A DNA stretch of 64,000 bases from Escherichia phage JS98. Shown here piece after piece: positions 8,923-56,070 of the stretch (the first letter of the stretch is position 1; every line of letters starts with the position of its first letter). The stretch is taken from sequence record NC_010105.1. The stretch is one strand, 5' to 3'. Below the pieces are notes generated by a model. The model was not told the origin of the DNA, did not search any database, and saw nothing but the letters and a program-made list of their open reading frames with translations. The position numbers and the translations under genes are program-made.

Positions 8923-9675
8923 ATGGCTAATATAGTACGTTGCGAAATGCCTGATGGAGTCCACCGATTTAAACCTTTTACAGTAGCTGATTATCGTGAT
9001 TTTATTTTGATTCGAAATGATATGAATAATAAATCACCTGAAGAGCAAAAACAAATTTTAGATGAGTTACTGGAAGAATACTTTGGTGAGTACCCTGTGT
9101 CATGGCGCCCATACATGTTTATTGAATTGTATACGTCATCTCTCGGCAAGACCAAAATTCCTATCCGATACACTTGCAGTAAGTGTGAAAAGGATAAACA
9201 AGTCTTATTCAATTTGAAGCAGGCCAAGTTAGATAACCCTACAATTGAAGTGGCTGGCTTGAAACTAACATTCAAATTTCCGGAAATAGAATATCACGAC
9301 AAATCTGAATTGATTTTGAACACCCTCCAAACAGTAGAAGATGAAAATGGGACCTATAATTGGACTGACCTTTCTGAAGAAGACCAGTTAGCCGTAATAG
9401 ATGCTATAGACTTATCTACTTTAGAGGATATAGTCAAACAAACAAGCCCTATTCATTTCGAGCTCAAATACGGGTGCTGTAATCGTAGAACAATTACATA
9501 CACTGACATTTTAGAAGTGTTTAAACTTATAGTCAATCCGGATGAGATATTTTTATTTTACCAAATAAACCATTTACTGGTAAAGAACAATTATTCATTA
9601 GAAAGCATTATGCAGATGATTCCAATTGAACGCGGCATTGCTTTGTCTTTGGTTGAAAAGGACCTTAAGAAATGA
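8923..9675 (+). CDS. 51: Baseplate hub assembly protein gp51
   Basis: 250 aa from the ATG at 8923 (track start 8872 lies upstream of the late promoter); position as in T4. Confidence 0.75.
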
Positions 9676-10841
9676 GTTCAAAAACTATGCAGCGTGAAGG
9701 CTTTCCTAATATTAGTATACGCCTTTACGAAGATTATGACGCCTGGTTAGAGCATCGTTTTGTTGAACTAGGCGCGACATTTACTACCCTAACAATGCGA
9801 GATGGTCTTTATGGTAATAATGAAGGATTGCTCCAGTTTTATGATGCAAAAAACCTTCATACTAAAATGGATGGTGAACAAATTATCCAAGTTTCTGTTA
9901 AGAATGCCAACTCGGAACGTACCCAATCAAGAATTTACGGAAGTAAACACTTTGCAGTAGGGGTGGATTCTAAGGGCGACAATATCATAACAATACAACT
10001 CGCCCCTATCCACTTTTTAGAAAATCTTAAATTCGGACGTATGTTCTTCCCTAGTGTTCAAGAAACATTAACCGAAATGATTGGGGTTATTTATCAAGAC
10101 CGACCACTCCTTGCACCTCCATTGAACGGGATAAACGTTTATGTTCCTAATGTTCCTTGGTGTGATTCTATGGACAGATATATGGAATTTGTGCGAGAAG
10201 TAGGTATGGCTGTTGAATCCGATAAATTTGTATTTGTCTGGGAAGATATAGATGGTATTTCTATCATGGACTACGAATTTATGGTTAATCAAGAGCCTAT
10301 CAATTTTGTGGTTGGCGAGCCTCGTTTAATAGGCCAATACGTTCAAGATATGGATACTCCTATTGCATTTGATTTTGAGTGGTTAACTAAAGCCAACCAA
10401 CATACCCGAAAACCGTACGAAAATGCTACAGTATATGCCCATTCGTTCCTAGATAAAAACGCCACACGAATTACTTTTGGTGATGGGCAAAACAGTATAT
10501 TGGTTTCTCGTTCAGGTGGATATTCTGATTATACCTACCGAAACGGGTTTGAAGAAGCTGATAGATTGGTTACTATGGCCCAGTATGATGGGTACGCTCA
10601 TTGCAAGGTATATGGGAACTTTGAATTAACTCCGGGTGATAAGATTAATTTCTACGACCCTAAAAACCAGTTCCAATACGATTTTTATGTAGACGAAGTT
10701 ATTCATGAAGTGAGTAACAATACATCAATTACAAACCTTTATATGTTTACTAATGGTAAGCCTATTAAGATTGAAGAGCCACCGAAGGTTAAAAATGAAC
10801 TTAAAACTGATACTCCCGATCAAGAAAATAACGCTGGGTGA
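9672..10841 (+). CDS. 27: Baseplate hub subunit gp27
   Basis: 389 aa; T4 order 51-27-28-29. Confidence 0.8.
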
Positions 10842-15445: not shown

Positions 15446-15475
15446 ATAGTACCACATCCTTGTGGTGTTGTAAAC
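15446..15475 (-). promoter_or_regulatory. T4-type early promoter (-35 GTTTAC, 17 nt, -10 TACTAT)
   Basis: rc of 15469-15475 and 15446-15451; conserved leader CTTACACAAACATGAGGAGAAC before the ATG. Confidence 0.55.
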
Positions 15476-17601
15476 TACATTTTGAATTTATTTGGTAAAG
15501 AAGAGATGTCCAAAGATGCAGCAAGGATTTCCATAGCCTCATTACTTTCTGAAACAGATTCTGAAACTAGGAATTCTTTAAACCCGTTCATCAATTTAAC
15601 TTCACCGGTTTCCATCAGATGGTCACCATCGTAAACGGACTCACTGAGTTCTGAAGGAGATGTCACTGTAGCTTCCATAAGGTATTTGTGAGATACTCTA
15701 TCATTCATAGCAAAAGCCGCTACTTTATCAACCTTCAACAATAATCCTCGCGGAAGGATAATTTCTGCTTCTTCGGAATATTCTGTAAGGTCACCAGGAG
15801 CGATAACTTTAACTGCTTCAGCACCTCGAATAACCATACCGATTTCAGCAATCCTGTCTGCAGGGCCTTCAGGTGCAATTGGATTACCGAACTCGTCTTC
15901 TTCCCATTCTACCTCTTCATCATCAACTTCGCCTACATCAGATGAACTACCACTGGCTAATTTAAACAACTCATCAGCGGAGGATAAAGAACCTTCATCA
16001 CCAACAAAAACTGCTTGGTTGTCGAGGGCCATATAATTTTTACCAAATTCGCCAAAGATATTAGGCTTTAATGAAGCAGACACAAAGTTCTTAAAGTAAA
16101 ATGTTTTGTTATCAATATTATGGCGCAGAATTTTGTATGGTAAATCCTGACCACGATACAAAATAGTACCCTTAGGAAGTTTAATACCCTTGGTAAATGC
16201 TGAGTCTAAATCCTTAATCAATTTAATAGCTGTTGTATTGTTTTCGGATTCAGGTTTACCTAAAAGGAATAAGTTCATAGGAGCATATTCAGCCGCACAA
16301 TATTCAATAATGGCATTGCTTTCGTCTTTGGTCAAGCCCTTAGGTTTAATGAGCTCGCCTGAATAAGCATATGCATCGCTAATAGAATCGTTAATCAGTT
16401 TATAAACGGCTTCCATAGCGAAAGCAATTCGGGATGCTTTCTCTGAAGGAGACCCCTGAAAACGGGCACTCAGGTTATTAACAATTCTCTTAATAATATC
16501 CAGACTATTGGTAGTATTGATTTGAGAAAGGCCACTTAAAAGTCTATCGACTTCCGTATTAAAAAATGCCATATTATTAGAGTAAATTTCAAACCCTTGT
16601 TTATCTCTATTAGCATAATTTAGTTTAAATTTACTATCAGTCATTAAAGCGTGCGTGAGAGCAATGGTGTATCTAAAGTTGGCAAGGTCCTCACTCTTAG
16701 ATTTAAACTGAGAGGCCTGACGCATTTTAGTAATAGCACCTTTTTTAAAGTTCTGACTAATCTGCTCAATACCTTCGTTCTCAGGGCCTTCGGCCGAGTG
16801 AACAGGGACAGAAGCTTCAAACTCGTTATAAACCTGCAATTCTTTAGGTGATAAAGTTTCAGGTTCGGCAGTAGAATACTGCGCTGCTGCAGCCATACGA
16901 CGGGAAATCTTAGTACGAGAAATAACAGCCTTATCGGTACGTTTCTCTTCAACCTGTGCAATAGATGCTGCTACGGCTTCGACCTTACTTACAGCCTGGC
17001 CGGTTTTCTTAGAAACATAAACTTCACCGACTTTAGACTCAACCTTGGTATAAAGGTCCGCATCAATTTCAGGCATACCCTTGATATCTTCGATATTAGT
17101 GCCACGACGTGCTAAAAGAACGTATGTATGTTTACCACTAAACTGGAACATATCATCGACAACTTTAAACTTACCACCGGTACGGGCCATCGCCAAACGA
17201 GCTAATACACGCTGAACAGTAGGGCCTTTACCTTTCATTTTCTTGGTAGGGAAACGGAATAAAACCGCATCCATTTTAAGTTTATTTACTTGTTCGTATA
17301 TCGTATCGAAAATAGTATTCAATGTACCAAGTGGGTCGGAACCAAGGCCACCTTTGAGTTCAGCCGGGGCACCCTTGCTCGACAAACTCATTAAAATAAC
17401 ATGGACATATTTGTCGCCTGGCTTAACCATTTTAATAGCGTCTCCTTGAGACGCATAAGATACCATACGAGCAACCAGGTTATCGTTACCCGGTGCATGG
17501 ATAGAGAAAATCTGTGGAATACCGGAACCCGGTTTAAGATTTGTTACTGGATAGTTTTTAGCGGAATCACTATCAAAAACCTCGTTTAAATTTTCCATCA
17601 T
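15475..17601 (-). CDS. Alt-family ADP-ribosyltransferase, paralog 1
   Basis: 708 aa; N-terminus shared with the neighbour (MVSYASxGDAIK..VKxGDKY.HVILMSLS.KG.PAELKGGLG); C-terminal R / STS-like (VSASL) / ExE (EAEIILPRGLL) ART motifs. Confidence 0.8.
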   Translation of the reverse strand: MMENLNEVFDSDSAKNYPVTNLKPGSGIPQIFSIHAPGNDNLVARMVSYASQGDAIKMVKPGDKYVHVILMSLSSKGAPAELKGGLGSDPLGTLNTIFDTIYEQVNKLKMDAVLFRFPTKKMKGKGPTVQRVLARLAMARTGGKFKVVDDMFQFSGKHTYVLLARRGTNIEDIKGMPEIDADLYTKVESKVGEVYVSKKTGQAVSKVEAVAASIAQVEEKRTDKAVISRTKISRRMAAAAQYSTAEPETLSPKELQVYNEFEASVPVHSAEGPENEGIEQISQNFKKGAITKMRQASQFKSKSEDLANFRYTIALTHALMTDSKFKLNYANRDKQGFEIYSNNMAFFNTEVDRLLSGLSQINTTNSLDIIKRIVNNLSARFQGSPSEKASRIAFAMEAVYKLINDSISDAYAYSGELIKPKGLTKDESNAIIEYCAAEYAPMNLFLLGKPESENNTTAIKLIKDLDSAFTKGIKLPKGTILYRGQDLPYKILRHNIDNKTFYFKNFVSASLKPNIFGEFGKNYMALDNQAVFVGDEGSLSSADELFKLASGSSSDVGEVDDEEVEWEEDEFGNPIAPEGPADRIAEIGMVIRGAEAVKVIAPGDLTEYSEEAEIILPRGLLLKVDKVAAFAMNDRVSHKYLMEATVTSPSELSESVYDGDHLMETGEVKLMNGFKEFLVSESVSESNEAMEILAASLDISSLPNKFKM

Positions 17602-19689
17602 TTACCCTTGGATGAATTTTTCTGGTATGCCATAGAGGTCTATGCATGAAGCCAAAAGAGGCAGTACGTCAAACCGTGTAGATTTAACAAATGAATCAAA
17701 AGATACAGGGCTTTCGGAAGTATCGAAGTCATCTTGGTATACGACCAACTCACCAGTTTCCATTAGTACGTCACCATCATACACTACAGATTCTTGAAGC
17801 TCATCTGATGTCATAACTTCAGCTTGAATAAATTTATTGTTAGACACCGCCCCAGAACCAGTATTGGCTGATGCATCCACGATTTTATCTATTTTTACAA
17901 GTAGCCCGCGTGGTAAAATTATTTCCTTTTCGTTGGCATGCATGCTTAATTGGCCAGGATAAATCACGTTAACCTTATGAGCGCCACTAATAGCCCAGCC
18001 AACATCAACACGGATTTGATCCGGTGCATACATATGTGTACGCACTTGACTAGCCGAGATGGTAACGCCTTCGTCATTATTATCAATGTTTAATTCTTTT
18101 CGAACATCATCGGAAGCAAGACCAATAGCCGCATTCTCTTTAAAGCCACCAAAAATGATTGGAGCCAATGAGGTTGAAACATAGTTTCTAAAATAGAATA
18201 CCTTATTTTTAACTAATGCTTCGTAGATAGGCGCGCGCAAAGATTGTGCTCTATAAACCATTATTCCTTCAGGTAAACGGTCACCATTTTTAAAGGCAGA
18301 ATCCATTCCATCAATAGCACGTTTAACTTCGCTTTCGTCCAAAACTTCATAAAAGCCCGGTTTATAACGGCCAAGAAGGACATTGTTAATATCAATATAA
18401 GCTGAAGAGGCGTATTCTCTGATAGCTCGTTTTTCTGCAAGTGTATATTGTTTAGGGTCTCGAGATGTTGTTATATTAAGAATTTCTCTAGTTGATTCTA
18501 TAGCGTATGTATACATTATCTTAGACAAGAATGAAGACTTACGTTGTTTCCATACTCTTTCACTGTTTTCATTCAATATCTCTTTTTCCAAATGGAAATT
18601 GTCTTTTCTATAATCTTCAAACCAATCACTTTTAATAGATTCTGCGATTTCATTAGCAGCTTCAACAAAGGCGGCTAAAGCTTTAACTGACGTGGTTTTT
18701 TCATTTTTAATTTTTTTGACAAATTTTTCTAAAGAAGAGTTAATTTTATCACCGTAAGAAACTTCATCCGCAAATTTAAATGAATCATCCATAGTATTAT
18801 AAATTTTAAAATCAATAGCCGTAGCCAGCTTATCCTTAGCTGTTTCGGATGATAATGATAATTCAACTTCGGCTGCTTGTGGAATTAATTCCGCCGTAGC
18901 AGGCGCACTGAACTCATTGGCAGTTTGTTCATATTTCTGAAATAATTCACCTTCATTACGGTCTGCTTCTAATGACTGGCTTGCCGCAATCGCACGACGA
19001 GAAATCTTAGTCTTGGTTATAACCATTTTATCAGTGCGACGTTCTTCAACTTTAGCAATACTGCCGGCAATAGCGGTTTCTTTAGTAACCTGAGCGCCTT
19101 CTTTTTTAGAAATATAAACTTCACCAACATCAGAATCTACCTTAGTATATAATTCGGCATTAATTCCAGGCATACCTTTGATATCTTCGATATCAGCTTG
19201 TTTACGAACTACTAGGATATAAGTATGTTTACCGGTAAATTGGTACATGGCTGGAACTACTTTAAAACGTCCACCGGTTTTCTGTGCTACCAAACGTTGG
19301 ATAATCCGTTGGACAATAGGTCCTTGTCCTTTCATTTTCTTGGTTGGAAAACGGAACATCACAGCATCCATACGAAGCTTTTTAACTTGTTCGAATACTA
19401 CGTCGAAAATGGTATTAATAGCATCAATAGGAGTAGGGCCTAATCCACCTTTAAGTTCGGCTGGAGTACCTTTAGCTGATAAACTCATCAAAATAACGTG
19501 GGCATATTTATCACCTAATTTAACCTGTTTAATAGCATCGCCTTCAGAGGCATAAGATACCATACGAGCAACTAATTGGGATTCGGCGTCGCCAATCTTC
19601 CAAATCTGGGGTACTTTAAGTTTTGGGTTTAAGTTTACAGTAGGCAGGGTGCCTTCGGACTCAAACACCTCATTCAATTGTTCGGTCAT
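17602..19689 (-). CDS. alt: Alt ADP-ribosyltransferase, paralog 2
   Basis: 695 aa; VSTSL and EKEIILPRGLL motifs; N-terminal capsid-targeting-like sequence; position next to ligase as in T4. Confidence 0.8.
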   Translation of the reverse strand: MTEQLNEVFESEGTLPTVNLNPKLKVPQIWKIGDAESQLVARMVSYASEGDAIKQVKLGDKYAHVILMSLSAKGTPAELKGGLGPTPIDAINTIFDVVFEQVKKLRMDAVMFRFPTKKMKGQGPIVQRIIQRLVAQKTGGRFKVVPAMYQFTGKHTYILVVRKQADIEDIKGMPGINAELYTKVDSDVGEVYISKKEGAQVTKETAIAGSIAKVEERRTDKMVITKTKISRRAIAASQSLEADRNEGELFQKYEQTANEFSAPATAELIPQAAEVELSLSSETAKDKLATAIDFKIYNTMDDSFKFADEVSYGDKINSSLEKFVKKIKNEKTTSVKALAAFVEAANEIAESIKSDWFEDYRKDNFHLEKEILNENSERVWKQRKSSFLSKIMYTYAIESTREILNITTSRDPKQYTLAEKRAIREYASSAYIDINNVLLGRYKPGFYEVLDESEVKRAIDGMDSAFKNGDRLPEGIMVYRAQSLRAPIYEALVKNKVFYFRNYVSTSLAPIIFGGFKENAAIGLASDDVRKELNIDNNDEGVTISASQVRTHMYAPDQIRVDVGWAISGAHKVNVIYPGQLSMHANEKEIILPRGLLVKIDKIVDASANTGSGAVSNNKFIQAEVMTSDELQESVVYDGDVLMETGELVVYQDDFDTSESPVSFDSFVKSTRFDVLPLLASCIDLYGIPEKFIQG

Positions 19690-19712
19690 AATAATTCCTC
19701 TTTAATAACCGT

Positions 19713-19720
19713 ATTTATGC
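19713..19720 (-). promoter_or_regulatory. Possible weak late promoter (CATAAATA) for alt
   Basis: One mismatch to TATAAATA; about 25 nt upstream of the alt ATG. Confidence 0.3.
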
Positions 19721-19726
19721 CATAAA

Positions 19727-19740
19727 AGGCCCGAAGGCCT
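19727..19740 (-). terminator. Hairpin AGGCC-CGAA-GGCCT between the small ORF and alt
   Basis: On the - transcript the stem is followed by UUUAUGG. Confidence 0.45.
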
Positions 19741-19910
19741 TAAAGTGGTAGCAACGTACGATATACTTCGAATGTCGGGCCTTTTTCATAGCCGTCAAAC
19801 ACGTCTTTAAAATCGGCAAAAGCTATTTCATCCTCAAACTCTAGGATGATTTGAGAGGCCGCAGTGTTATTTGTGTTTGTTACAACAATTGTTTCTAAAT
19901 AAGCTTTCAT
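19740..19910 (-). CDS. Hypothetical small protein
   Basis: 56 aa from the internal ATG that abuts the ligase stop. Confidence 0.45.
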   Translation of the reverse strand: MKAYLETIVVTNTNNTAASQIILEFEDEIAFADFKDVFDGYEKGPTFEVYRTLLPL

Positions 19911-19911
19911 A

Positions 19912-21435
19912 TTATAGTCCAGTTTGAGACCAATCACCAAATACATCTTCAAATGTATCAGCTTCAGTTTTATCGAAACGCCAACCTTTAATAATTGGAA
20001 GGAAAATACCTACAGTATCAGTACGTCCTTTAGAATGAACCCAACCATTACATTCACAGTCAGCAATACGTCCAATCAACTTACCTTCACGAGCTTGTTT
20101 CATAAGAAGTTCACGGTCTAAATCAGGGCGGTCTTCTAATGGAATCAACACCTTTTTACCTGATTTATCTTTCTTATGGGTAGTATCTTTAAAGCCTGAG
20201 CCGCAGTCACTTGTAATTCGACGACAACGTGATACCAACTCGACACCGCCAAGTTTGTTAGGGTCCTTCGAGTGTTCATAATAACCTACCACTTCTAAAG
20301 CGATATCGATTACTTCTTTGAACTTGATAAGATTCTTAGAACGGCGGTTTTCCCAGTAGGAGTCCATGTTCTTAAGGATAATACCTTCCAGGCCTTGGTC
20401 GACATATTTCTTATAAACGACTTTAGCTTCGTCAAGATTATTGACCCATTGGTTTTCGATAGCTTCAACACGCGTTGTACCATGCAATACGACATTATGA
20501 GCAACCATAAGTTCTAAGGCAGTAAAGCGTACATCGTACTTATCGCCTTTAATTTTACCTTCGGAATATACGACATCCAATGGGACATAATCCCACGCCT
20601 GTAACACCATACCTGCTGCTTCGGTTGGGGTAATAGTTCCTTGAAGAGCCTTGTTAGCCAACCCGTTTGAAGTAGAACGATCGGCTACGGTTTGGAATTC
20701 CTTGGCTTTACTTAATTCAGGAAGTTCCTCATCAAACATACTAAACAAATCATTAGATGCTTTAGGTTCTACTTTAGGAGTGTGGTAAACTAATTCGCCA
20801 TCAATCATAACACCATTAGGATGGCGCTGTCGAGCTTCTTCGGTCATGGCCATTAATTCGGCCGCCAAAAGATTAAGCCCTTGGTATTCATTACCACCAC
20901 GAGTAAGGAATGTTACGCCATCGTTACGAACTTCAGCAAAACAACGAGCACCGTCAGCTTTTAATTGGGCGAACGCGGGCCATTTAATATTTTTCTTAAT
21001 CAAATCTTCATCATAAGAACTAGCCAACATTTGAGGTTGTTCAGGGATTAAACCTTTCCAAACCTTGTTAGCAATAGAAATCGATGCACCACATTCAAGG
21101 TCACGCATCATTACGCGACGTAATACCTCAGCGTCAGGACCCTTGGCATCAGCAATAATTTGGGCAAGCTCTTCAATAGCAGCATTACCCGTAATCTTAC
21201 GGGTGGCTAATGTGAACTCAGCGAAATCAAGAAGGTCTTCAAGTGTAATCATACCAAAGGATTGAGACGTAAATCCAGGTTCAGGCCACTTTTTAATACC
21301 GTAGTTCAGACGACGGGTATAAGCCATACGATATACACGTTTCAGAAGCTCGTTATCCTTTTCACGAGCAATAATAGCTTCTTTAGCTTTAGTAGAATCA
21401 ATAGAAGCAATTTCGTTTAAAATATCTAAAATCAT
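19912..21435 (-). CDS. 30: ATP-dependent DNA ligase gp30
   Basis: 507 aa; KADGAR adenylation motif; T4 position. Confidence 0.92.
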   Translation of the reverse strand: MILDILNEIASIDSTKAKEAIIAREKDNELLKRVYRMAYTRRLNYGIKKWPEPGFTSQSFGMITLEDLLDFAEFTLATRKITGNAAIEELAQIIADAKGPDAEVLRRVMMRDLECGASISIANKVWKGLIPEQPQMLASSYDEDLIKKNIKWPAFAQLKADGARCFAEVRNDGVTFLTRGGNEYQGLNLLAAELMAMTEEARQRHPNGVMIDGELVYHTPKVEPKASNDLFSMFDEELPELSKAKEFQTVADRSTSNGLANKALQGTITPTEAAGMVLQAWDYVPLDVVYSEGKIKGDKYDVRFTALELMVAHNVVLHGTTRVEAIENQWVNNLDEAKVVYKKYVDQGLEGIILKNMDSYWENRRSKNLIKFKEVIDIALEVVGYYEHSKDPNKLGGVELVSRCRRITSDCGSGFKDTTHKKDKSGKKVLIPLEDRPDLDRELLMKQAREGKLIGRIADCECNGWVHSKGRTDTVGIFLPIIKGWRFDKTEADTFEDVFGDWSQTGL

Positions 21436-21695
21436 TTTACCGTCCTTACAGTTTGTGTACTTCTATTATAAGCTACTTCATCTAAAAGCTCATTTAAAGT
21501 TTTGTGATACGATATAATACGCTTATCTTTAATATCATATTCAGTAACATACATAAATCCACGCCGAACACATTGGATAAAGATATCTTCATCTTTGGCT
21601 TGGAAATATACAGGGTTCAATCGAAGGAATTGCCTAAAGTTTCCATAATCATGGGATTTAGGGATTCCATCAGTAATAGTATGAACAACAAACAT
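21432..21695 (-). CDS. Hypothetical protein (30.1 position)
   Basis: ORF-track protein; internal ATG at 21695 abuts the upstream gene stop. Confidence 0.5.
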   Translation of the reverse strand: MFVVHTITDGIPKSHDYGNFRQFLRLNPVYFQAKDEDIFIQCVRRGFMYVTEYDIKDKRIISYHKTLNELLDEVAYNRSTQTVRTVK

Positions 21696-21696
21696 A

Positions 21697-22335
21697 TTAA
21701 CCTCGTGCAATCCATTCAACGGCTGCATTATTACGAAGGGATTCGATTGCTGCGATATCGTCCCATGAATTAACCTTTACGGCTAAATTAGGTTTAAAGT
21801 CGCGTTCACCACGGGCTAACCAATAAACTTGGATATCCATGAGAATATTAGATGCGGCGTCACAGTGGTGAGCCAAATCGTCAACATAAAACTTAATGCG
21901 TTTACCGTATGTATTTTTAGCTCTTATGAACAGGTCTTCTTTTGATTCTGAATGACCACACATCAGAATCTCCTTGAATGCGCCAGGGAACAAAGCATTC
22001 AAATTGAATTGTCTATTCAGCAGAGCATCAATTGAGTCGCCTAGCGCAGTCACGGCTACAAAATCGAAGTCTTTTTTGAGCTTGTTGATGTGTTTTAATG
22101 CGTCCATGTAAGGGGACAGATAACGAATAAAATCTGACTGGTTATATTTCTCGATTAAACGGGCGCCTAATTCGTCGTCACAATTAAACAGTTCGCCTGG
22201 AGATAAGAAACGTTCGTCCTGAATCATATTCAAAATATGTTCTAAAGGCAAATTATATTTCTGTGCGAAATAAGGCAAGCCGGACTGCCAACTTAAACAT
22301 ACTCCATCGATATCTGTTAAGATAACTGGTTTCAT
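21697..22335 (-). CDS. HAD-superfamily-like hydrolase (30.2 position)
   Basis: 212 aa; N-terminal ILTDIDGV (HAD motif I-like DxDG) and later FYVDD (motif IV-like). Confidence 0.55.
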   Translation of the reverse strand: MKPVILTDIDGVCLSWQSGLPYFAQKYNLPLEHILNMIQDERFLSPGELFNCDDELGARLIEKYNQSDFIRYLSPYMDALKHINKLKKDFDFVAVTALGDSIDALLNRQFNLNALFPGAFKEILMCGHSESKEDLFIRAKNTYGKRIKFYVDDLAHHCDAASNILMDIQVYWLARGERDFKPNLAVKVNSWDDIAAIESLRNNAAVEWIARG

Positions 22336-22799
22336 AATAAATCTCTCAATTTGTTTAGGATGTCGATAAACTCTTTTTCAGTTAGTATTGTATCACATTC
22401 TTTGAGGTGGCTTGCCATTGAATGCTTTAAAACCTTACCTTTAGTGGCTTGTAAAGCTTCTCGGAATCCTTTGTTCTGGAGCGCTGCTTCAAAATACGCA
22501 CTTTCGTAAAGCTCTTTCCACGCTTCGGAATATCTTGAAAACGGGGTCCCAAGCCAGAACAACGTGCCACGGTCCTGAGCTCTAGCATAAGCTCGACCAG
22601 CTTTTTGCGCGTCTAACCCGGACATCCTAAATATACGTCTTTGTTGTTCAACATTTTTCACCTTACACCCTTGGAGGAATCCTTCGAGTCCACCAAATTG
22701 GATACCATCCATAACGAAAGGCCATTTAGCAAAGTTACTTAATGCACATGATGGCCACGGAAAGTTACTTCTAATTTCTAACTCAGACATCTTTGACAC
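22332..22799 (-). CDS. NADAR (DUF1768/YbiA-like) domain protein
   Basis: 155 aa; ALSNFAKWPFVMDGIQFGGLEGFLQGCK matches the NADAR signature as I recall it. Confidence 0.6.
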   Translation of the reverse strand: MSKMSELEIRSNFPWPSCALSNFAKWPFVMDGIQFGGLEGFLQGCKVKNVEQQRRIFRMSGLDAQKAGRAYARAQDRGTLFWLGTPFSRYSEAWKELYESAYFEAALQNKGFREALQATKGKVLKHSMASHLKECDTILTEKEFIDILNKLRDLL

Positions 22800-22998
22800 T
22801 TATAATTTCAACATCAGCCCAATAACCATAACCCGGCAGTCGGTCTTCAATGGATAAACCACCATCATGTTTAGGCATTTTAATTGTCATGATATAAGGT
22901 TCTAAATGGTCCGCCGTATGAGGAGAAACATCAGTCACACGATAAGTCACTTCAACCATTTCCGTACCTAACAATTTCTGAATCAGTTTCTTGACCAT
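22783..22998 (-). CDS. Hypothetical protein
   Basis: 71 aa ORF in the early operon. Confidence 0.45.
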   Translation of the reverse strand: MVKKLIQKLLGTEMVEVTYRVTDVSPHTADHLEPYIMTIKMPKHDGGLSIEDRLPGYGYWADVEIISVKDV

Positions 22999-22999
22999 A

Positions 23000-23194
23000 T
23001 TATCCTCGCTTCAAACATTTGATTACAGACAATTCAGAACCCATGCGAACGTCTTCAGTGCCATCGACCCATAGGACCGTGTAGGCTTCTTTAATAGTAG
23101 CATTACCCAATTTAAAAGCAGGTAAAACCTTTGAAATCATACCAGGAATACCTACACCTTTTAACTGAACGGTTTGTGATAAGAATAGTTGCAT
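23000..23194 (-). CDS. Hypothetical protein
   Basis: 64 aa ORF, tightly packed. Confidence 0.45.
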   Translation of the reverse strand: MQLFLSQTVQLKGVGIPGMISKVLPAFKLGNATIKEAYTVLWVDGTEDVRMGSELSVIKCLKRG

Positions 23195-23514
23195 TAGAAC
23201 CTCATCTGGAATCCATGTGATTTAACATTACCGCCGTAGATGTCAGAAGTATTGACTTCGCGGGCGACACTTGGGTCGATGTTAATATCGCGGTTGAGCT
23301 TAGTGATTGCTAGGGTGTCACGACCATTGACTGTACGGAATTCTACTGGACAAACCACATCAGCATAGGCCTTAATGGATTCACGAGTAGGCTGTTTGTC
23401 AGCAGGAACATCTTTACCTGCCTTAGAGAAAACAACTTCACAGAAATTTTTACGAGTATCGAAATAAGTGGTCATAAACATAATATTTTCCTCAAAGGAG
23501 GCCGAAGCCTCCAT
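23194..23514 (-). CDS. Hypothetical protein (likely start at 23481)
   Basis: An in-frame ATG at 23481 is preceded by TGAGGAAAAT SD and the 23497-23512 hairpin. Confidence 0.5.
   Translation of the reverse strand: MEASASFEENIMFMTTYFDTRKNFCEVVFSKAGKDVPADKQPTRESIKAYADVVCPVEFRTVNGRDTLAITKLNRDINIDPSVAREVNTSDIYGGNVKSHGFQMRF
23497..23512 (-). promoter_or_regulatory. Hairpin GGAGGC-UUCG-GCCUCC followed by SD (recurrent module)
   Basis: Perfect 6 bp stem with UUCG loop on the - transcript immediately 5' of UGAGGAAAAU; same stem as at 63006. Confidence 0.5.
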
Positions 23515-23522
23515 TTTTAAGA

Positions 23523-23888
23523 TTAGATATCAAATTCATTCAGAACTACATCAAAGATTGCTTCCAGGTGTTCAGGTTTAGCACGGTTGCTCAGGATGTG
23601 ACGAATCCAGGTTTTAACCAGAAGCTTACGATTATCACCGTTCCAGCAAGGATGGGTACCTAAATCACGTTGACGGAAATCATCATCCAAAGCGATTTTA
23701 AAAGTAGAACCTTCCATAGTGATTGAAACCGTGATACCATTTTCAAAGCGCATATAAACGTAGTTAGGAGTCATGCACTGTTCGATTTCGCACACTGTGC
23801 CGTTGTTGTGTTTCCACAGACAAATAACTTCAGAAGAACCAGCGATACCGTTAGAAACATATTTACGTTCGAAGTTGATGTAGTTCAT
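23523..23888 (-). CDS. Hypothetical early protein
   Basis: 121 aa; own early promoter and conserved leader. Confidence 0.55.
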   Translation of the reverse strand: MNYINFERKYVSNGIAGSSEVICLWKHNNGTVCEIEQCMTPNYVYMRFENGITVSITMEGSTFKIALDDDFRQRDLGTHPCWNGDNRKLLVKTWIRHILSNRAKPEHLEAIFDVVLNEFDI

Positions 23889-23932
23889 TTTATTCTCCAG
23901 TTTGTTTTCGTATTATTTGGTACAGGTCTATA
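23886..23932 (-). repeat. Leader repeat copy A (identical 39 nt, about 47 nt with 1 mismatch, shared with 24292-24338)
   Basis: cattttattctccagtttgttttcgtattatttggtaca occurs at both loci, covering start codon, SD and 5' leader. Confidence 0.85.
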
Positions 23933-23958
23933 ATAACACAACCTGTACCAAAGTAAAA
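23930..23958 (-). promoter_or_regulatory. T4-type early promoter flanked by 9 bp inverted repeat GGTACAGGT/ACCTGTACC
   Basis: -10 TATTAT, -35 GTTTTAC by rc; perfect IR at 23918-23926 and 23940-23948 brackets the -10. Confidence 0.5.
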
Positions 23959-23961
23959 CAT

Positions 23962-24294
23962 TTATTTCACAACATTCCAATTTTTCATATCAAGTTTACC
24001 AACTTTTTTCATCTGAGCAATCAGACGTTCAGCACGTGTACGGGCATTAACGTAATAGAATTCACCAATTTTGTTTTCTTCAATACGGCCAGTAATTACA
24101 GTTTTCAGTTCATAAATCCAACCTGTAAAGAAGTTGTGAAGCTCGATGGTAAATGTGAAATCAGTACCCATACCTTCAGTTGTTTCAACTTCGATGATAT
24201 CACCTTCAACTGCAGTCAGGACCCACATGGTTTCTTGATATTCACCGTTGAAACATTTAGCTTTAACAGATGCGTTCAGGTTTACAGTTTTCAT
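23962..24294 (-). CDS. Hypothetical early protein
   Basis: 110 aa; own early promoter; leader identical to its neighbour. Confidence 0.55.
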   Translation of the reverse strand: MKTVNLNASVKAKCFNGEYQETMWVLTAVEGDIIEVETTEGMGTDFTFTIELHNFFTGWIYELKTVITGRIEENKIGEFYYVNARTRAERLIAQMKKVGKLDMKNWNVVK

Positions 24295-24338
24295 TTTATT
24301 CTCCAGTTTGTTTTCGTATTATTTGGTACATGTCTATA
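24292..24338 (-). repeat. Leader repeat copy B
   Basis: See 23886-23932. Confidence 0.85.
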
Positions 24339-24364
24339 GTATCATGCCTACCGGAGATGTATAC
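24336..24364 (-). promoter_or_regulatory. T4-type early promoter (-35 GTATACA, -10 TACTAT)
   Basis: rc of 24358-24364 and 24336-24341. Confidence 0.45.
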
Positions 24365-24393
24365 CCTTTTTTTAAAGATTTAGAAACAAAAAT

Positions 24394-24411
24394 GGGACTC
24401 CGAAGAGTCCC
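24394..24411 (-). terminator. Intrinsic terminator GGGACUC-UUCG-GAGUCCC + U-tract
   Basis: 7 bp stem with UUCG loop on the - transcript followed by AUUUUUGUUUCU. Confidence 0.65.
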
Positions 24412-24416
24412 ATAAC

Positions 24417-24578
24417 TTATGCCTGAGGCTTACCAAAGCAAGCAGCATCTGCACGCAATACTGCACGAGCACGAGCTTGAAGCTTATCAACTACCTGATT
24501 GATACGCTTGTTGGACGCACGCTTGTAACCAGCGCGTTTAGAGGTACCGTCAACTACTTTAACTTCTTTCTTAGCCAT
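24417..24578 (-). CDS. Small basic protein, 53 aa
   Basis: Manually read MAKKEVKVVDGTSKRAGYKRASNKRINQVVDKLQARARAVLRADAACFGKPQA; strong terminator follows. Confidence 0.45.
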   Translation of the reverse strand: MAKKEVKVVDGTSKRAGYKRASNKRINQVVDKLQARARAVLRADAACFGKPQA

Positions 24579-24884
24579 TTTTAAATCTCTTAAATTAGGA
24601 TGCAGGACTTATTGACATTGCCTGCGCAAGCCCTCAAGGGGAACATAGGTTTTAGATATTTAACGACAGGATAACCATAAACCTCGTCATCATAGCTCTT
24701 ATCTGTTGCACACCGTTAGCTTAAAGGTTCCGGGTTCGATTTCTCGAGGATAAGATATATACTGATGGATATATAGGCCTTGAGGCGTACTCCCGATTGG
24801 CCATCACCTCGGGGTAGCATGCACTTGCCGCTATAAAATACATTCAAGAGGTACACCGTAAAACTGCTGGGGTCTTAAAACTAT

Positions 24885-24902
24885 AATGATTCGCAAATCA
24901 TT
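24885..24902 (-). other. Hairpin AATGATT-CGCA-AATCATT 30 nt downstream of rIII
   Basis: Perfect 7 bp inverted repeat; AT-rich stem, so terminator function is uncertain. Confidence 0.35.
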
Positions 24903-24930
24903 AATCAGACAGTTCGACGGCTCCTCGATT

Positions 24931-25179
24931 TTACTTCAGGGTAATAATAAAATGACGTACTGCTTTACGAGCTGCTGAAGCCAAAGGCTTAGCATATTTC
25001 AGTTCATCTTTTGCTTCCAGTTCAGCAGCCAGAGTAGCCTGAGCAGGATTAAGATGTTTGAAATAACGCAGGATTTCCAGTGCTTCGGCTTCAACATCAA
25101 TAGATGCGCCGTAGTTTTCGTGACCGTTGTTCCAAGCGTTGCGTTGCAGTTCAAGAGCGTGATTCAGATGTTTGTTCAT
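24931..25179 (-). CDS. rIII: rIII lysis-inhibition accessory protein
   Basis: 82 aa from the internal ATG (T4 rIII is 82 aa); position between the 30.x block and gene 31 as in the T4 map. Confidence 0.6.
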   Translation of the reverse strand: MNKHLNHALELQRNAWNNGHENYGASIDVEAEALEILRYFKHLNPAQATLAAELEAKDELKYAKPLASAARKAVRHFIITLK

Positions 25180-25331
25180 TTTAAATTCTCGATTCGAGAT
25201 AAAGATTGGTGGACACGTTCTTCTGAATTTCACTTCCTTTCGGCAAGTCTCTCAGTTGTAGTCCACCGCTTAGGATTAGCTAACCCCATACACCAGCAAA
25301 GCTCTGTATGACATTAGCCAATCCATATTAT

Positions 25332-25339
25332 TATTTATA
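25332..25339 (-). promoter_or_regulatory. Late promoter TATAAATA upstream of rIII
   Basis: Exact rc motif about 150 nt upstream of rIII. Confidence 0.4.
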
Positions 25340-25663
25340 TCACTTATAAAGACACGGAATAGCTTTATAGTGACAGGTAACGAATTTCTGTTTAATTTCT
25401 TTAGGCTGTTTAATACCCAATGCAACTAAAGGATGTGGCACGTTAGCAATCTTACCAACAGGAAGTGGAGTCAAATCGCCTACTTCACAAAACCCTTCAG
25501 GGACATCAGGTCCTACAGAATAAATTTCACAAAGTTCAGGGATTTCACCTTGATGAAGTTTGCCAATAACGATACCAGATGCAGTAGTTTCTTCATCGCC
25601 AGCTTGTTTTGGTTCGGAAACGAGAATAACATATTCTCCGACCGCTTTAATAGGAAGTTCCAT
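25340..25663 (-). CDS. 31: Co-chaperonin gp31 (GroES-like)
   Basis: 107 aa with GroES-like fold pattern; T4 position; MotA-type promoter upstream. Confidence 0.8.
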
Positions 25664-25694
25664 ATTTAATCCATGTTGTTTTGTTGATAGATTA

Positions 25695-25719
25695 ATAATA
25701 ACACGCTATTCTTAAAGCA
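25695..25719 (-). promoter_or_regulatory. MotA-dependent middle promoter of gene 31
   Basis: rc reads ATGCTTTAAG then 12 nt then TATTAT. Confidence 0.5.
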
Positions 25720-25721
25720 TA

Positions 25722-26021
25722 TTACAGGACAAGCAGAGTTTCAGTCTGAAGCCCATTAATAGAAATCAGTTTATCGAAACGGAACGAGCGCCAGTCATTA
25801 ACCTTGGTATCAAATACACGAATATAATTAACCGGTTCTTTATTAGCTTCTGGGCCCGGGGCTTGAATTTCTTTATACGGGAGGAGGTCCAGGTCGCGAG
25901 TACAAGTCATACGACGAACACTACCATCCGCCTTTTCAAACAGAACTTCGTGAGTACCTACAGACAGAATAGTCTTGGCTTTTTCACGGAGCCGAATAGT
26001 TTCTTGTTCAGTTAAAATCAT
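25722..26021 (-). CDS. Hypothetical protein (31.1 position)
   Basis: 99 aa ORF. Confidence 0.5.
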   Translation of the reverse strand: MILTEQETIRLREKAKTILSVGTHEVLFEKADGSVRRMTCTRDLDLLPYKEIQAPGPEANKEPVNYIRVFDTKVNDWRSFRFDKLISINGLQTETLLVL

Positions 26022-26023
26022 AA

Positions 26024-26257
26024 TTATTCCAGAATAGTTTTAATAGTGGTTGCATTACGCTCTTTTAGAGCTCTTAGTAGGCTATGGCAATTATCAAGAA
26101 TAGGCACCGTTTTGTATTTCATGTTGGCATAGACCCACTCAGATTTATAGTACGATTTCCATCGAGAGAAAAAGTACTTTTTGTATTCTACCGAATAGGC
26201 TACTAAGCTTTCACCTTTTGAATTCAGACCTGAAAACTTCACTAATCGAAATTTCAT
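26024..26257 (-). CDS. Hypothetical protein (31.2 position)
   Basis: 77 aa ORF. Confidence 0.5.
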   Translation of the reverse strand: MKFRLVKFSGLNSKGESLVAYSVEYKKYFFSRWKSYYKSEWVYANMKYKTVPILDNCHSLLRALKERNATTIKTILE

Positions 26258-26802
26258 TATTCACCACAATAGTTTTGAATTGATTCCCAGTTCAGAGAAC
26301 GGAGACCAGTACGGTTATACTGGATAACTTCGATGCCTGATTCACGGAGGATATCATCCCATCCTTCAGGATTTCGGTCATAGAGTTCAGCATAAACCAG
26401 CGTTTTAATTCCGGACTGCGCAATAGACTTAGCACAATCTGCACATGGGGACAGTGTCACATACATCGTAGCACCGTCAATAGAACTTCCTGTACGAGCT
26501 GCAAACAGGATAGCATTCAGTTCAGCATGGATTTCATTTTTGGATGACCACGCGGCATGAGCCATACGATGTTCTTTAAGAAGAATCGATTTATGGGACA
26601 TTCGTGCCGTGTCATACACAACACGAGTCCAGTCCTGTTCCACTGCATGGTCGCAACAGTTAACACCACCAGACGGAGAACCATTATACCCTGTAGAAAT
26701 AATACGGCCATTCTTTTCAATAACCGCGCCCACTTTCCATGAACAACATTTTGATTCCTGAGAAATCAGATATGCAATCTGAAGATATGTACTTGCTTTC
26801 AT
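26257..26802 (-). CDS. cd: dCMP deaminase
   Basis: 181 aa; HAE zinc-binding motif and PCxxC (SPCADCAK). Confidence 0.9.
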   Translation of the reverse strand: MKASTYLQIAYLISQESKCCSWKVGAVIEKNGRIISTGYNGSPSGGVNCCDHAVEQDWTRVVYDTARMSHKSILLKEHRMAHAAWSSKNEIHAELNAILFAARTGSSIDGATMYVTLSPCADCAKSIAQSGIKTLVYAELYDRNPEGWDDILRESGIEVIQYNRTGLRSLNWESIQNYCGE

Positions 26803-55303: not shown

Positions 55304-55582
55304 TTAGCTACCAGGTTGTTCATGCAATTCCCTTAATTTGTATTCAAGATAGTTAATAATTGCTTTATTTGTTGCAATATACATATCACGTAGGAAGGGT
55401 TTCAGACCTTCTCTAACTCTATACGTGTTATCACTAATATCCTTTATATATTCATGGTCTAAAGCATCCCAAGCCGGTTGGTTGACATAAGTTCCCCAGT
55501 TGTCTTCAACCATAACATTCAGGCGTTTAATATGGTTGATATGGGCTTCGATTGCATCAATCTGGAGTTGTTTAAGATTCAT
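55304..55582 (-). CDS. arn: Arn, anti-restriction nuclease
   Basis: 92 aa (T4 Arn is 92 aa) at the T4 position between asiA and motA. Confidence 0.7.
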   Translation of the reverse strand: MNLKQLQIDAIEAHINHIKRLNVMVEDNWGTYVNQPAWDALDHEYIKDISDNTYRVREGLKPFLRDMYIATNKAIINYLEYKLRELHEQPGS

Positions 55583-56070
55583 TAGTAAAGGTCCTCAGAG
55601 TAAAGTTCTTTTTCACTACCACCACGTTCAATACGAACTTGATTAGCATATGTTGCAATAATCATTGCTTCTTCGCGAGTCCAATAATTTGAGTATTGGT
55701 CGATAAATCCTTGGTCATCACCGCAAACATGCTCTGACACAAGTTTATCACTTACTTGGTCAAGCACTTCTGCCATATCTTTTGAATAATGACGAGCTCC
55801 TGGAATAACCAGAGTCCCACCGTCTTTTAACTTAAAGCGATTGGCTGCGCATACAATTCGACGTTGGTATTTTTCATTGTTATTCCAATGAGCAATCTGC
55901 CAACAGATTTCAGGAACCTCTTCCAAAACATCCTCTTCCGAATATTCAGTGTAGTCACCGTAGGCCCGTAATTTGGCCGCTAAGCTTTCAGGCGTCTCGC
56001 GAGAAAGAGCTTTATCTAATAAAGCCATACGGTCTTTAAAGGATAATTCTTTACCTTTTAATGGGTTCAT
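55582..56070 (-). CDS. Hypothetical protein (arn.x), tentative macro-domain-like motif
   Basis: 162 aa; [24 protein letters not shown] loosely resembles a macro-domain NAAN...GGG block; weak. Confidence 0.4.

Follow-up and report, generated by a model that had tools for sequence, protein, structure and literature searches.

A predicted AdfN orthologue and a neighbouring HAD-family phosphatase gene in a JS10-like Dhakavirus

Phage NADARs, DarTG1 and the gene 30 region

Within the NADAR superfamily, the gp30.3 proteins make up the branch from phages (PMC11125620, Toxins 2024). T4 gp30.3 has already been published under the name AdfN, for anti-DarT factor NADAR, by Johannesman et al. (2025, PMC11825919). 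The resistance of phages T2 and T4 to DarTG1 was mapped to gene 30.3, which was then renamed adfN (PMC11825919, Nat Commun 2025). Purified T4 AdfN, alone in vitro, strips ADP-ribose from DarT1-modified DNA; the substitutions E36A and K43A each impair it, and the truncation found in RB69, which removes the final 15 residues, lowers its activity (PMC11825919). T4 gp30.3 hydrolyses guanine-ADP-ribose, not thymidine-ADP-ribose (PMC11125620). The same study reports that a residue on the last strand is histidine in phage NADARs, glutamate in YbiA, and aspartate in the DarT1-linked NADARs. (Its methods describe the T4 gp30.3 construct as "residues 1-208", while 30.3 of NC_000866 has 152 amino acids.) In a transposon screen, T4 adfN was dispensable on E. 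coli K-12, and its mutants were lost under DarTG1 (bioRxiv 10.1101/2025.11.20.689424).

In the absence of infection, T4 AdfN fails to save E. coli from DarT1. Among phages, AdfN from T4 rescued RB69 fully and T5 and Bas25 weakly. Because uninfected cells were not rescued and phages other than T-even phages were helped only weakly, some T-even factor or context seems to be required.

The counter-defence enzyme is therefore already known, from work published in 2024-2025. Once host DarTG1 fires, its toxin DarT1 ADP-ribosylates guanines in the phage DNA, and replication is blocked. AdfN then hydrolyses the guanine-ADP-ribose bond, which allows replication to resume, so that the phage protein plays the role of an "orphan antitoxin."

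We analysed a stretch of 64,000 nt of phage DNA (the window). Positions 21400-23000 are 99% identical at the DNA level to Escherichia phage JS10 (Dhakavirus), and in JS10 the matching stretch is annotated with genes 30.1, 30.2, 30.3, and 30.4, which lie beside the DNA ligase gene (gene 30). Judging from this match, the source of the window is a JS10-like Dhakavirus, which is a T4-like phage of E. coli. The five genes form a tight head-to-tail string (30.4-30.3-30.2-30.1-30), all on the minus strand. Gene 30.4 (22783..22998; 71 amino acids) is identified by phrog_2042 (E = 6e-35), by the JS10 annotation, and by the junction sequence. Its stop overlaps the start of 30.3, or adfN (22332..22790), by 8 nt. 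Gene 30.3, a predicted NADAR-fold DNA ADP-ribosylglycohydrolase of 152 amino acids, in turn overlaps 30.2 (21697..22335; 212 amino acids) by 4 nt (ATGA). A single base separates 30.2 from 30.1 (TAAtATG). Gene 30.1 (21432..21695; 87 amino acids) encodes a DUF3045 protein (PF11243, E = 3.6e-19), is annotated in both JS10 and T4, and lies between 30.2 and the ligase gene, with which it shares an ATGA. Gene 30 itself (19912..21435) encodes the ATP-dependent DNA ligase (PF01068, E = 1.9e-23).

Also on the minus strand are two Alt-type ADP-ribosyltransferase genes, as the original prediction had stated: altA (17602..19689; 695 amino acids; PF03496, E = 1.3e-28) and altB (15475..17601; 708 amino acids; PF03496, E = 7.3e-18), which are "alta" and "altb" in JS10. 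The two paralogues are full-length and in tandem (15475-19689), whereas in T4, by its annotation notes, no more is left of the second copy than two remnants, alt.-1 and alt.-2.

At 23523-24294 (minus strand), the window has genes 30.7 (PF06919) and 30.8 (PF06019) between 30.6 and 30.9. In the JS10 annotation, 30.6 is directly followed by 30.9, which implies an indel of about 1.1 kb relative to the window and a variable region. A strong terminator-like hairpin (24392-24413, minus strand; 9 pairs, ATGGGACTCTTCGGAGTCCCAT and then a T-run) comes directly after 30.9. It lies upstream of the string of genes from 30.8 to the ligase and may mark the boundary of a transcription unit. The original prediction spoke of an early operon; a promoter scan of 19500-26500 found 11 sites, as compared to 19.3 expected from shuffled sequence, which is neutral on this point.

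Gene 30.3 and the NADAR family

The ORF at 22332..22799 (minus strand) encodes 155 amino acids from a GTG at 22799 and contains ALSNFAKWPFVMDGIQFGGLEGFLQGCK. The true start is probably the ATG at 22790, which gives 152 amino acids, because T4 and JS10 are both annotated with 152 amino acids and because the N-terminus MSELEIRSNF is common to the close relatives. The protein matches PF08010 (Phage_30_3) across profile positions 2-138 of 138 (E = 2e-65; 219 bits, with a cutoff of 36), and its homologues number 791 cluster representatives at E ≤ 1e-3 in an exhaustive search. For gp30.2, the corresponding results are a match to phrog_420 (E = 2e-70) and 123 homologues. Given these family matches and numbers of homologues, neither ORF is a chance ORF.

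Within adfN lies an alternative-frame ORF (22427-22588, minus strand), the counterpart of T4 30.3'. In T4 and most relatives, this frame stays open for 76 codons, as compared to 61 codons (53 from the ATG) here and in JS10, and it has diverged far more in sequence than the main adfN frame. It is probably not coding.

The original prediction was that the 155-amino-acid ORF carries the NADAR signature. This proved correct, although in Pfam the protein belongs to PF08010, which is kept as a separate family, and has no match to the NADAR family PF08719. Other searches with the single sequence also failed to place it (E = 0.78 for YbiA in the PDB and E = 0.036 in NCBIfam). Since single sequences placed neither gp30.3 nor gp30.2, profiles and predicted structures were needed.

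When a profile of the gp30.3 family (69 sequences) was compared to the PDB, the sole match was E. coli YbiA (2b3w; E = 3.5e-4). In this alignment, the family's SmEGfLqslK motif falls on SEHYFQAQK of YbiA, which is the E...QxxK motif; the catalytic Glu and Lys of the NADAR E-x3-Q-x2-K helix, which touch ADP-ribose, are present in gp30.3 as E36 and K43. Ten of the 69 family members weakly match Pfam NADAR at E ≤ 0.01 (the best E is 1.1e-4), and one member, P0077, scores 27.3 bits against PF08719, which is below the cutoff of 35.1. The AlphaFold2 model of gp30.3 (pLDDT 94.5, pTM 0.89) gave the same answer. Foldseek matched it confidently to just three PDB entries, which are the three NADARs with solved structures: YbiA (2b3w; probability 1.00), the Phytophthora nicotianae NADAR with ADP-ribose (8bau; 1.00), and the Geobacter lovleyi NADAR (8bat; 0.98). 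Every other PDB match had a probability under 0.1. So by its family profile and its modelled fold, rather than by a direct match to Pfam NADAR, gp30.3 is a NADAR-fold enzyme.

The window protein aligns to T4 gp30.3 without gaps over all 152 residues, with 85% identity (23 of the 152 residues differ). E36, K43, and H123 are all present. The C-terminal helix is intact: the alignment to T4 extends to the final residue (152 of 152), and the model has a helix at 138-151. In the alignment of the 69 family members, N19 is invariant, and the positions with at least 90% conservation include L17, S18, F25, E36, L39, Q40, and H123. H123 lies within LKHS, where it immediately follows the last strand of the prediction (E120-122), and matches the last-strand histidine that was described for phage NADARs (PMC11125620).

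With E36, K43, and H123 all in place and the C-terminal helix intact, we have high confidence that 22332..22790 encodes a functional orthologue of AdfN; its activity and its role in counter-defence are inferred from the T4 protein. The window would thus add one more intact allele of AdfN, in a Dhakavirus, and we predict that this phage is resistant to DarTG1. The original prediction, which was made from raw sequence alone, had proposed that the protein reverses ADP-ribosylation by DarTG-type defence systems. This amounts to a rediscovery, as the T4 orthologue de-ADP-ribosylates DNA and neutralises DarTG1 (PMC11825919, PMC11125620).

Some other members of the gp30.3 family are tandem duplications or fusions (relatives P0022, P0023, P0034, P0050, and P0098). 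The tandem proteins have two stretches that match Pfam (and a third that was found by phmmer) within 290-480 amino acids. The fused proteins have an ASCH domain or a prolipoprotein diacylglyceryl transferase (Lgt) domain.

Gene 30.2 and its neighbours

The neighbouring gene had been described in the original prediction as HAD-like, and its protein is a HAD-fold hydrolase. ILTDIDGV lies at residues 5-12 of gp30.2 and FYVDD at 149-153. All four HAD motifs are present (I, DxDx[TV]; II, T/S; III, K; IV, DD), along with the Rossmann-like core of the HAD fold. In 46 homologues, D8, D10, K132, D152, and D153 never vary, and at least 90% have T96. The second aspartate of HAD motif I indicates phosphoryl transfer rather than dehalogenation. 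The cap is helical and of the C1 type. We read gp30.2 as a Mg-dependent, C1-capped HAD phosphatase, which because of this cap most likely acts on a small phosphorylated molecule.

Our leading guess for the substrate is a (deoxy)nucleoside monophosphate. The best structural match of gp30.2 is a deoxyribonucleotidase-like protein, and 7 of the 46 relatives have weak matches to Pfam NT5C (the best E is 0.0029). However, gp30.2 itself scores just 12.9 bits against NT5C (E = 0.1), below the cutoff of 24.8, so we call it "deoxyribonucleotidase-like" only. With the single sequence, the PDB search gave 2jao at E = 0.19. The 5'(3')-deoxyribonucleotidases (NT5C; 3bwv, 2jao, 4mum, and 6g2n) are 14-18% identical to gp30.2, and generic HAD phosphatases score as well against it as they do. 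We also considered kinship to the dNMP phosphatase Dmp of phage T5, and rejected it: hhalign gave a probability of 2.4% and aligned motif I only.

The protein has 278 amino acids in T4 (9475-10311 of the T4 locus, L002), as compared to 212 here. T4 gp30.2 and many homologues of 270-300 amino acids continue at the C-terminus for another 85 residues or so, a tail that is absent from the window protein and from many homologues of about 200-220 amino acids.

We asked which genes are found near these two families across viral genomes, using 80 viral loci with a gp30.3-type NADAR gene, 71 loci with a gp30.2 homologue, and a range of 4 kb. Within this range, NADAR genes had a HAD gene as a neighbour at 24 of 80 loci, a ligase gene at 21, and an Alt gene at 15. 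Every locus with ligase or Alt shows the T4-type gene order. The remaining NADAR loci, which include jumbo phages and other T4-like genera, have no conserved neighbour in common. Similarly, clustering the ORFs from all 80 loci revealed no conserved neighbour outside of the T4-type gene order: the clusters that are present at about 20 or more loci are the T4-type neighbours (HAD, ligase, and small upstream ORFs) and a short minus-strand ORF. These counts do not support the original prediction's view of the HAD, NADAR, and Alt genes as one functional set.

Seen from 30.2, the NADAR gene abuts at 14 of 71 loci, lies within 1.3 kb upstream at another 17, and is absent from the 4-kb range at 40. 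On at least 8 T4-like contigs, the NADAR and HAD genes are over 50 kb apart. A ligase ORF, on the other hand, is within 4 kb of 30.2 at 67 of the 71 loci and usually starts 0-600 nt downstream (at three loci, the order of HAD and ligase is inverted). Other neighbours are less regular: 30.3 is found at 31 of the 71 loci, 30.1 at 23, and 30.4 at 12. We also looked for fusions of HAD to NADAR ("Rosetta stone" proteins) among 10 multidomain NADAR proteins and found none; these proteins have tandem NADAR repeats or fusions to ASCH and Lgt. The adjacency of adfN and 30.2 is an ancestral T4-type arrangement that is often broken, and it is the ligase gene that stays with 30.2. Because this conserved partner is the ligase and not adfN, we treat 30.2 as having a separate function. 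The steady place of 30.2 beside the ligase gene hints that this function is related to the ligase or to nucleotides. Gene 30.2 is widely conserved among T4-like phages, and a ligase-linked phosphatase is the residual curiosity at this locus.

Competing readings and relation to known enzymes

We considered three other explanations for gp30.2. If gp30.2 and gp30.3 formed a two-enzyme module, then the HAD protein might be a T-even-specific helper of AdfN or might process a product that is derived from ADP-ribose. The 4-nt overlap of the two genes would fit, as would the similar abutment of 30.3 and 30.2 in T4, and at the 31 loci with both genes, the NADAR gene is upstream of 30.2 and on the same strand, even for homologues with as little as about 43% identity. 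The literature also leaves room for a T-even helper, as described above for RB69 versus T5 and Bas25. But the partner is missing from the 4-kb range at 40 of the 71 30.2 loci and at about 56 of the 80 NADAR loci, the two genes can be over 50 kb apart, and none of the 10 multidomain NADAR proteins that were scanned has a HAD domain. Furthermore, the main text of the preprint (bioRxiv 10.1101/2025.11.20.689424) gives 30.3/adfN as the hit for DarTG1 and does not mention 30.2, and purified AdfN is active by itself in vitro. Overall, we view a module as highly unlikely. A more specific version, to which we give slightly less credence still, is that gp30.2 is the T-even-specific factor for full AdfN activity, either by clearing a phosphorylated product or remnant or by coupling AdfN to repair by the ligase. 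If this were true, then 30.3-30.2-(30.1)-30 would be a cassette for DNA de-ADP-ribosylation and repair, and not a chance neighbourhood; the often-broken adjacency weakens this idea. Finally, gp30.2 might work with the DNA ligase on DNA ends, for instance by taking off 3'-phosphates at nicks so that these can then be sealed, a 3'-phosphatase role comparable to that of the HAD domain in T4 Pnkp; we consider this unlikely, but not as far-fetched as the other two.

For gp30.3, one alternative is that it mainly degrades small molecules, either immune signals that are derived from ADP-ribose or YbiA-like intermediates of the riboflavin pathway. YbiA-type NADARs are N-glycosidases of riboflavin intermediates, and the weak NCBIfam match of gp30.3 (TIGR02464, E = 0.036) is to the same branch. 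That match scores 14 bits, though, with a cutoff of 74; the last-strand glutamate of the YbiA family is replaced by histidine in the gp30.3 clade; and for the T4 orthologue there is direct biochemical and genetic evidence of DNA de-ADP-ribosylation. We regard this alternative as very unlikely. It is even harder to credit that gp30.3 erases the phage's own marks, that is, those that Alt or ModA/B place on protein or RNA, so that the phage would carry a pair of writer and eraser. The proximity of adfN to the two alt paralogues (about 2.6 kb) suggests such a link, and viral ART, Macro, and NADAR genes have been discussed as one network (PMC9503650). Against it, the Alt-like genes that lie within 4 kb of NADAR genes (15 of 80 loci) are all in the T4-type order, the published substrate is guanine-ADP-ribose on DNA, with no activity on thymidine-ADP-ribose, and the deletion phenotype depends on DarTG1, with the gene being dispensable on plain K-12. 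We give this reading almost no weight. Instead, we think it very probable that 30.3 encodes a stand-alone NADAR, AdfN, and that 30.2 has a separate function within a shared ancestral gene order.

The original prediction also proposed that the phage encodes both writers and erasers of ADP-ribosylation, with a macro-like ORF at 55582..56070 (minus strand; 162 amino acids) as a further candidate. The first part holds in that both Alt and AdfN are encoded, but the known marks differ: the published substrate of AdfN is the guanine-ADP-ribose that the host toxin DarT1 writes on DNA, and Alt writes on protein. The second part fails. The 162-amino-acid protein is homologous to T4 Arn.3, with 72% identity, and precomputed annotations assign it to PF26092. 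We found no match to Pfam Macro, its PHROG has no assigned function, NCBIfam was negative, and no macro chain was found in the PDB with either the single sequence or a 23-sequence profile. (Its features include the core RH..QGF.D and, at the C-terminus, an invariant SEDLY.) The UniRef name of its homologues, "Anti-restriction nuclease," looks mis-propagated, as T4 Arn has no similarity to the protein.

The real macrodomain eraser of T-even phages is T4 Tk.4, or AdfM, which is an anti-DarTG2 factor (bioRxiv 10.1101/2025.11.20.689424) and is not related to the Arn.3 homologue. JS10 Tk.4 matches Pfam Macro (E = 7.5e-8); we found no homologue of Tk.4/AdfM within the 64,000-nt window. The lineage of the phage (JS10) thus has genes for writers (Alt) and for two erasers, AdfN here and AdfM in another part of the genome. 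To current knowledge, AdfN and AdfM erase DNA marks that are written by the host, and not the protein marks of Alt. Overall, both ORFs of the original prediction were confirmed at the positions it gave, and its interpretation was partly supported: it was right on the central point of NADAR and DarTG, while its side claims either failed or lacked support.

How does gp30.3 compare to the NADARs that have been described? E. coli YbiA (2b3w), the founding member of NADAR/DUF1768, is the best match by sequence profile as well as by structure (Foldseek E = 6.7e-5, TM 0.67), and both proteins carry the SNFA...E..Q..K motif, albeit with 19% identity. YbiA differs in its last-strand glutamate, in its housekeeping role, and in that it does not rescue cells from DarT1 (PMC11125620). 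DarG1, the NADAR antitoxin of DarTG1 (8bat, from G. lovleyi), shares the fold and is named in the literature as the closest bacterial relative of the phage NADAR clade. DarG1 also carries out the same reaction, the removal of ADP-ribose from guanine in DNA, that was shown for T4 AdfN. Unlike DarG1, the phage protein consists of the NADAR domain alone and lacks an N-terminal extension (152 versus 219 amino acids), it has histidine instead of aspartate on the last strand, and its gene is not linked to a toxin gene; also, T4 AdfN cannot substitute for DarG1 in uninfected cells. As for T4 AdfN, the window's protein differs from it by the 23 substitutions, the phage is a Dhakavirus instead of a Tequatrovirus, and 30.3' is truncated. 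Otherwise they are alike: both have 152 amino acids, occupy the same slot between 30.4 and 30.2, and share E36, K43, H123, and the C-terminal helix.
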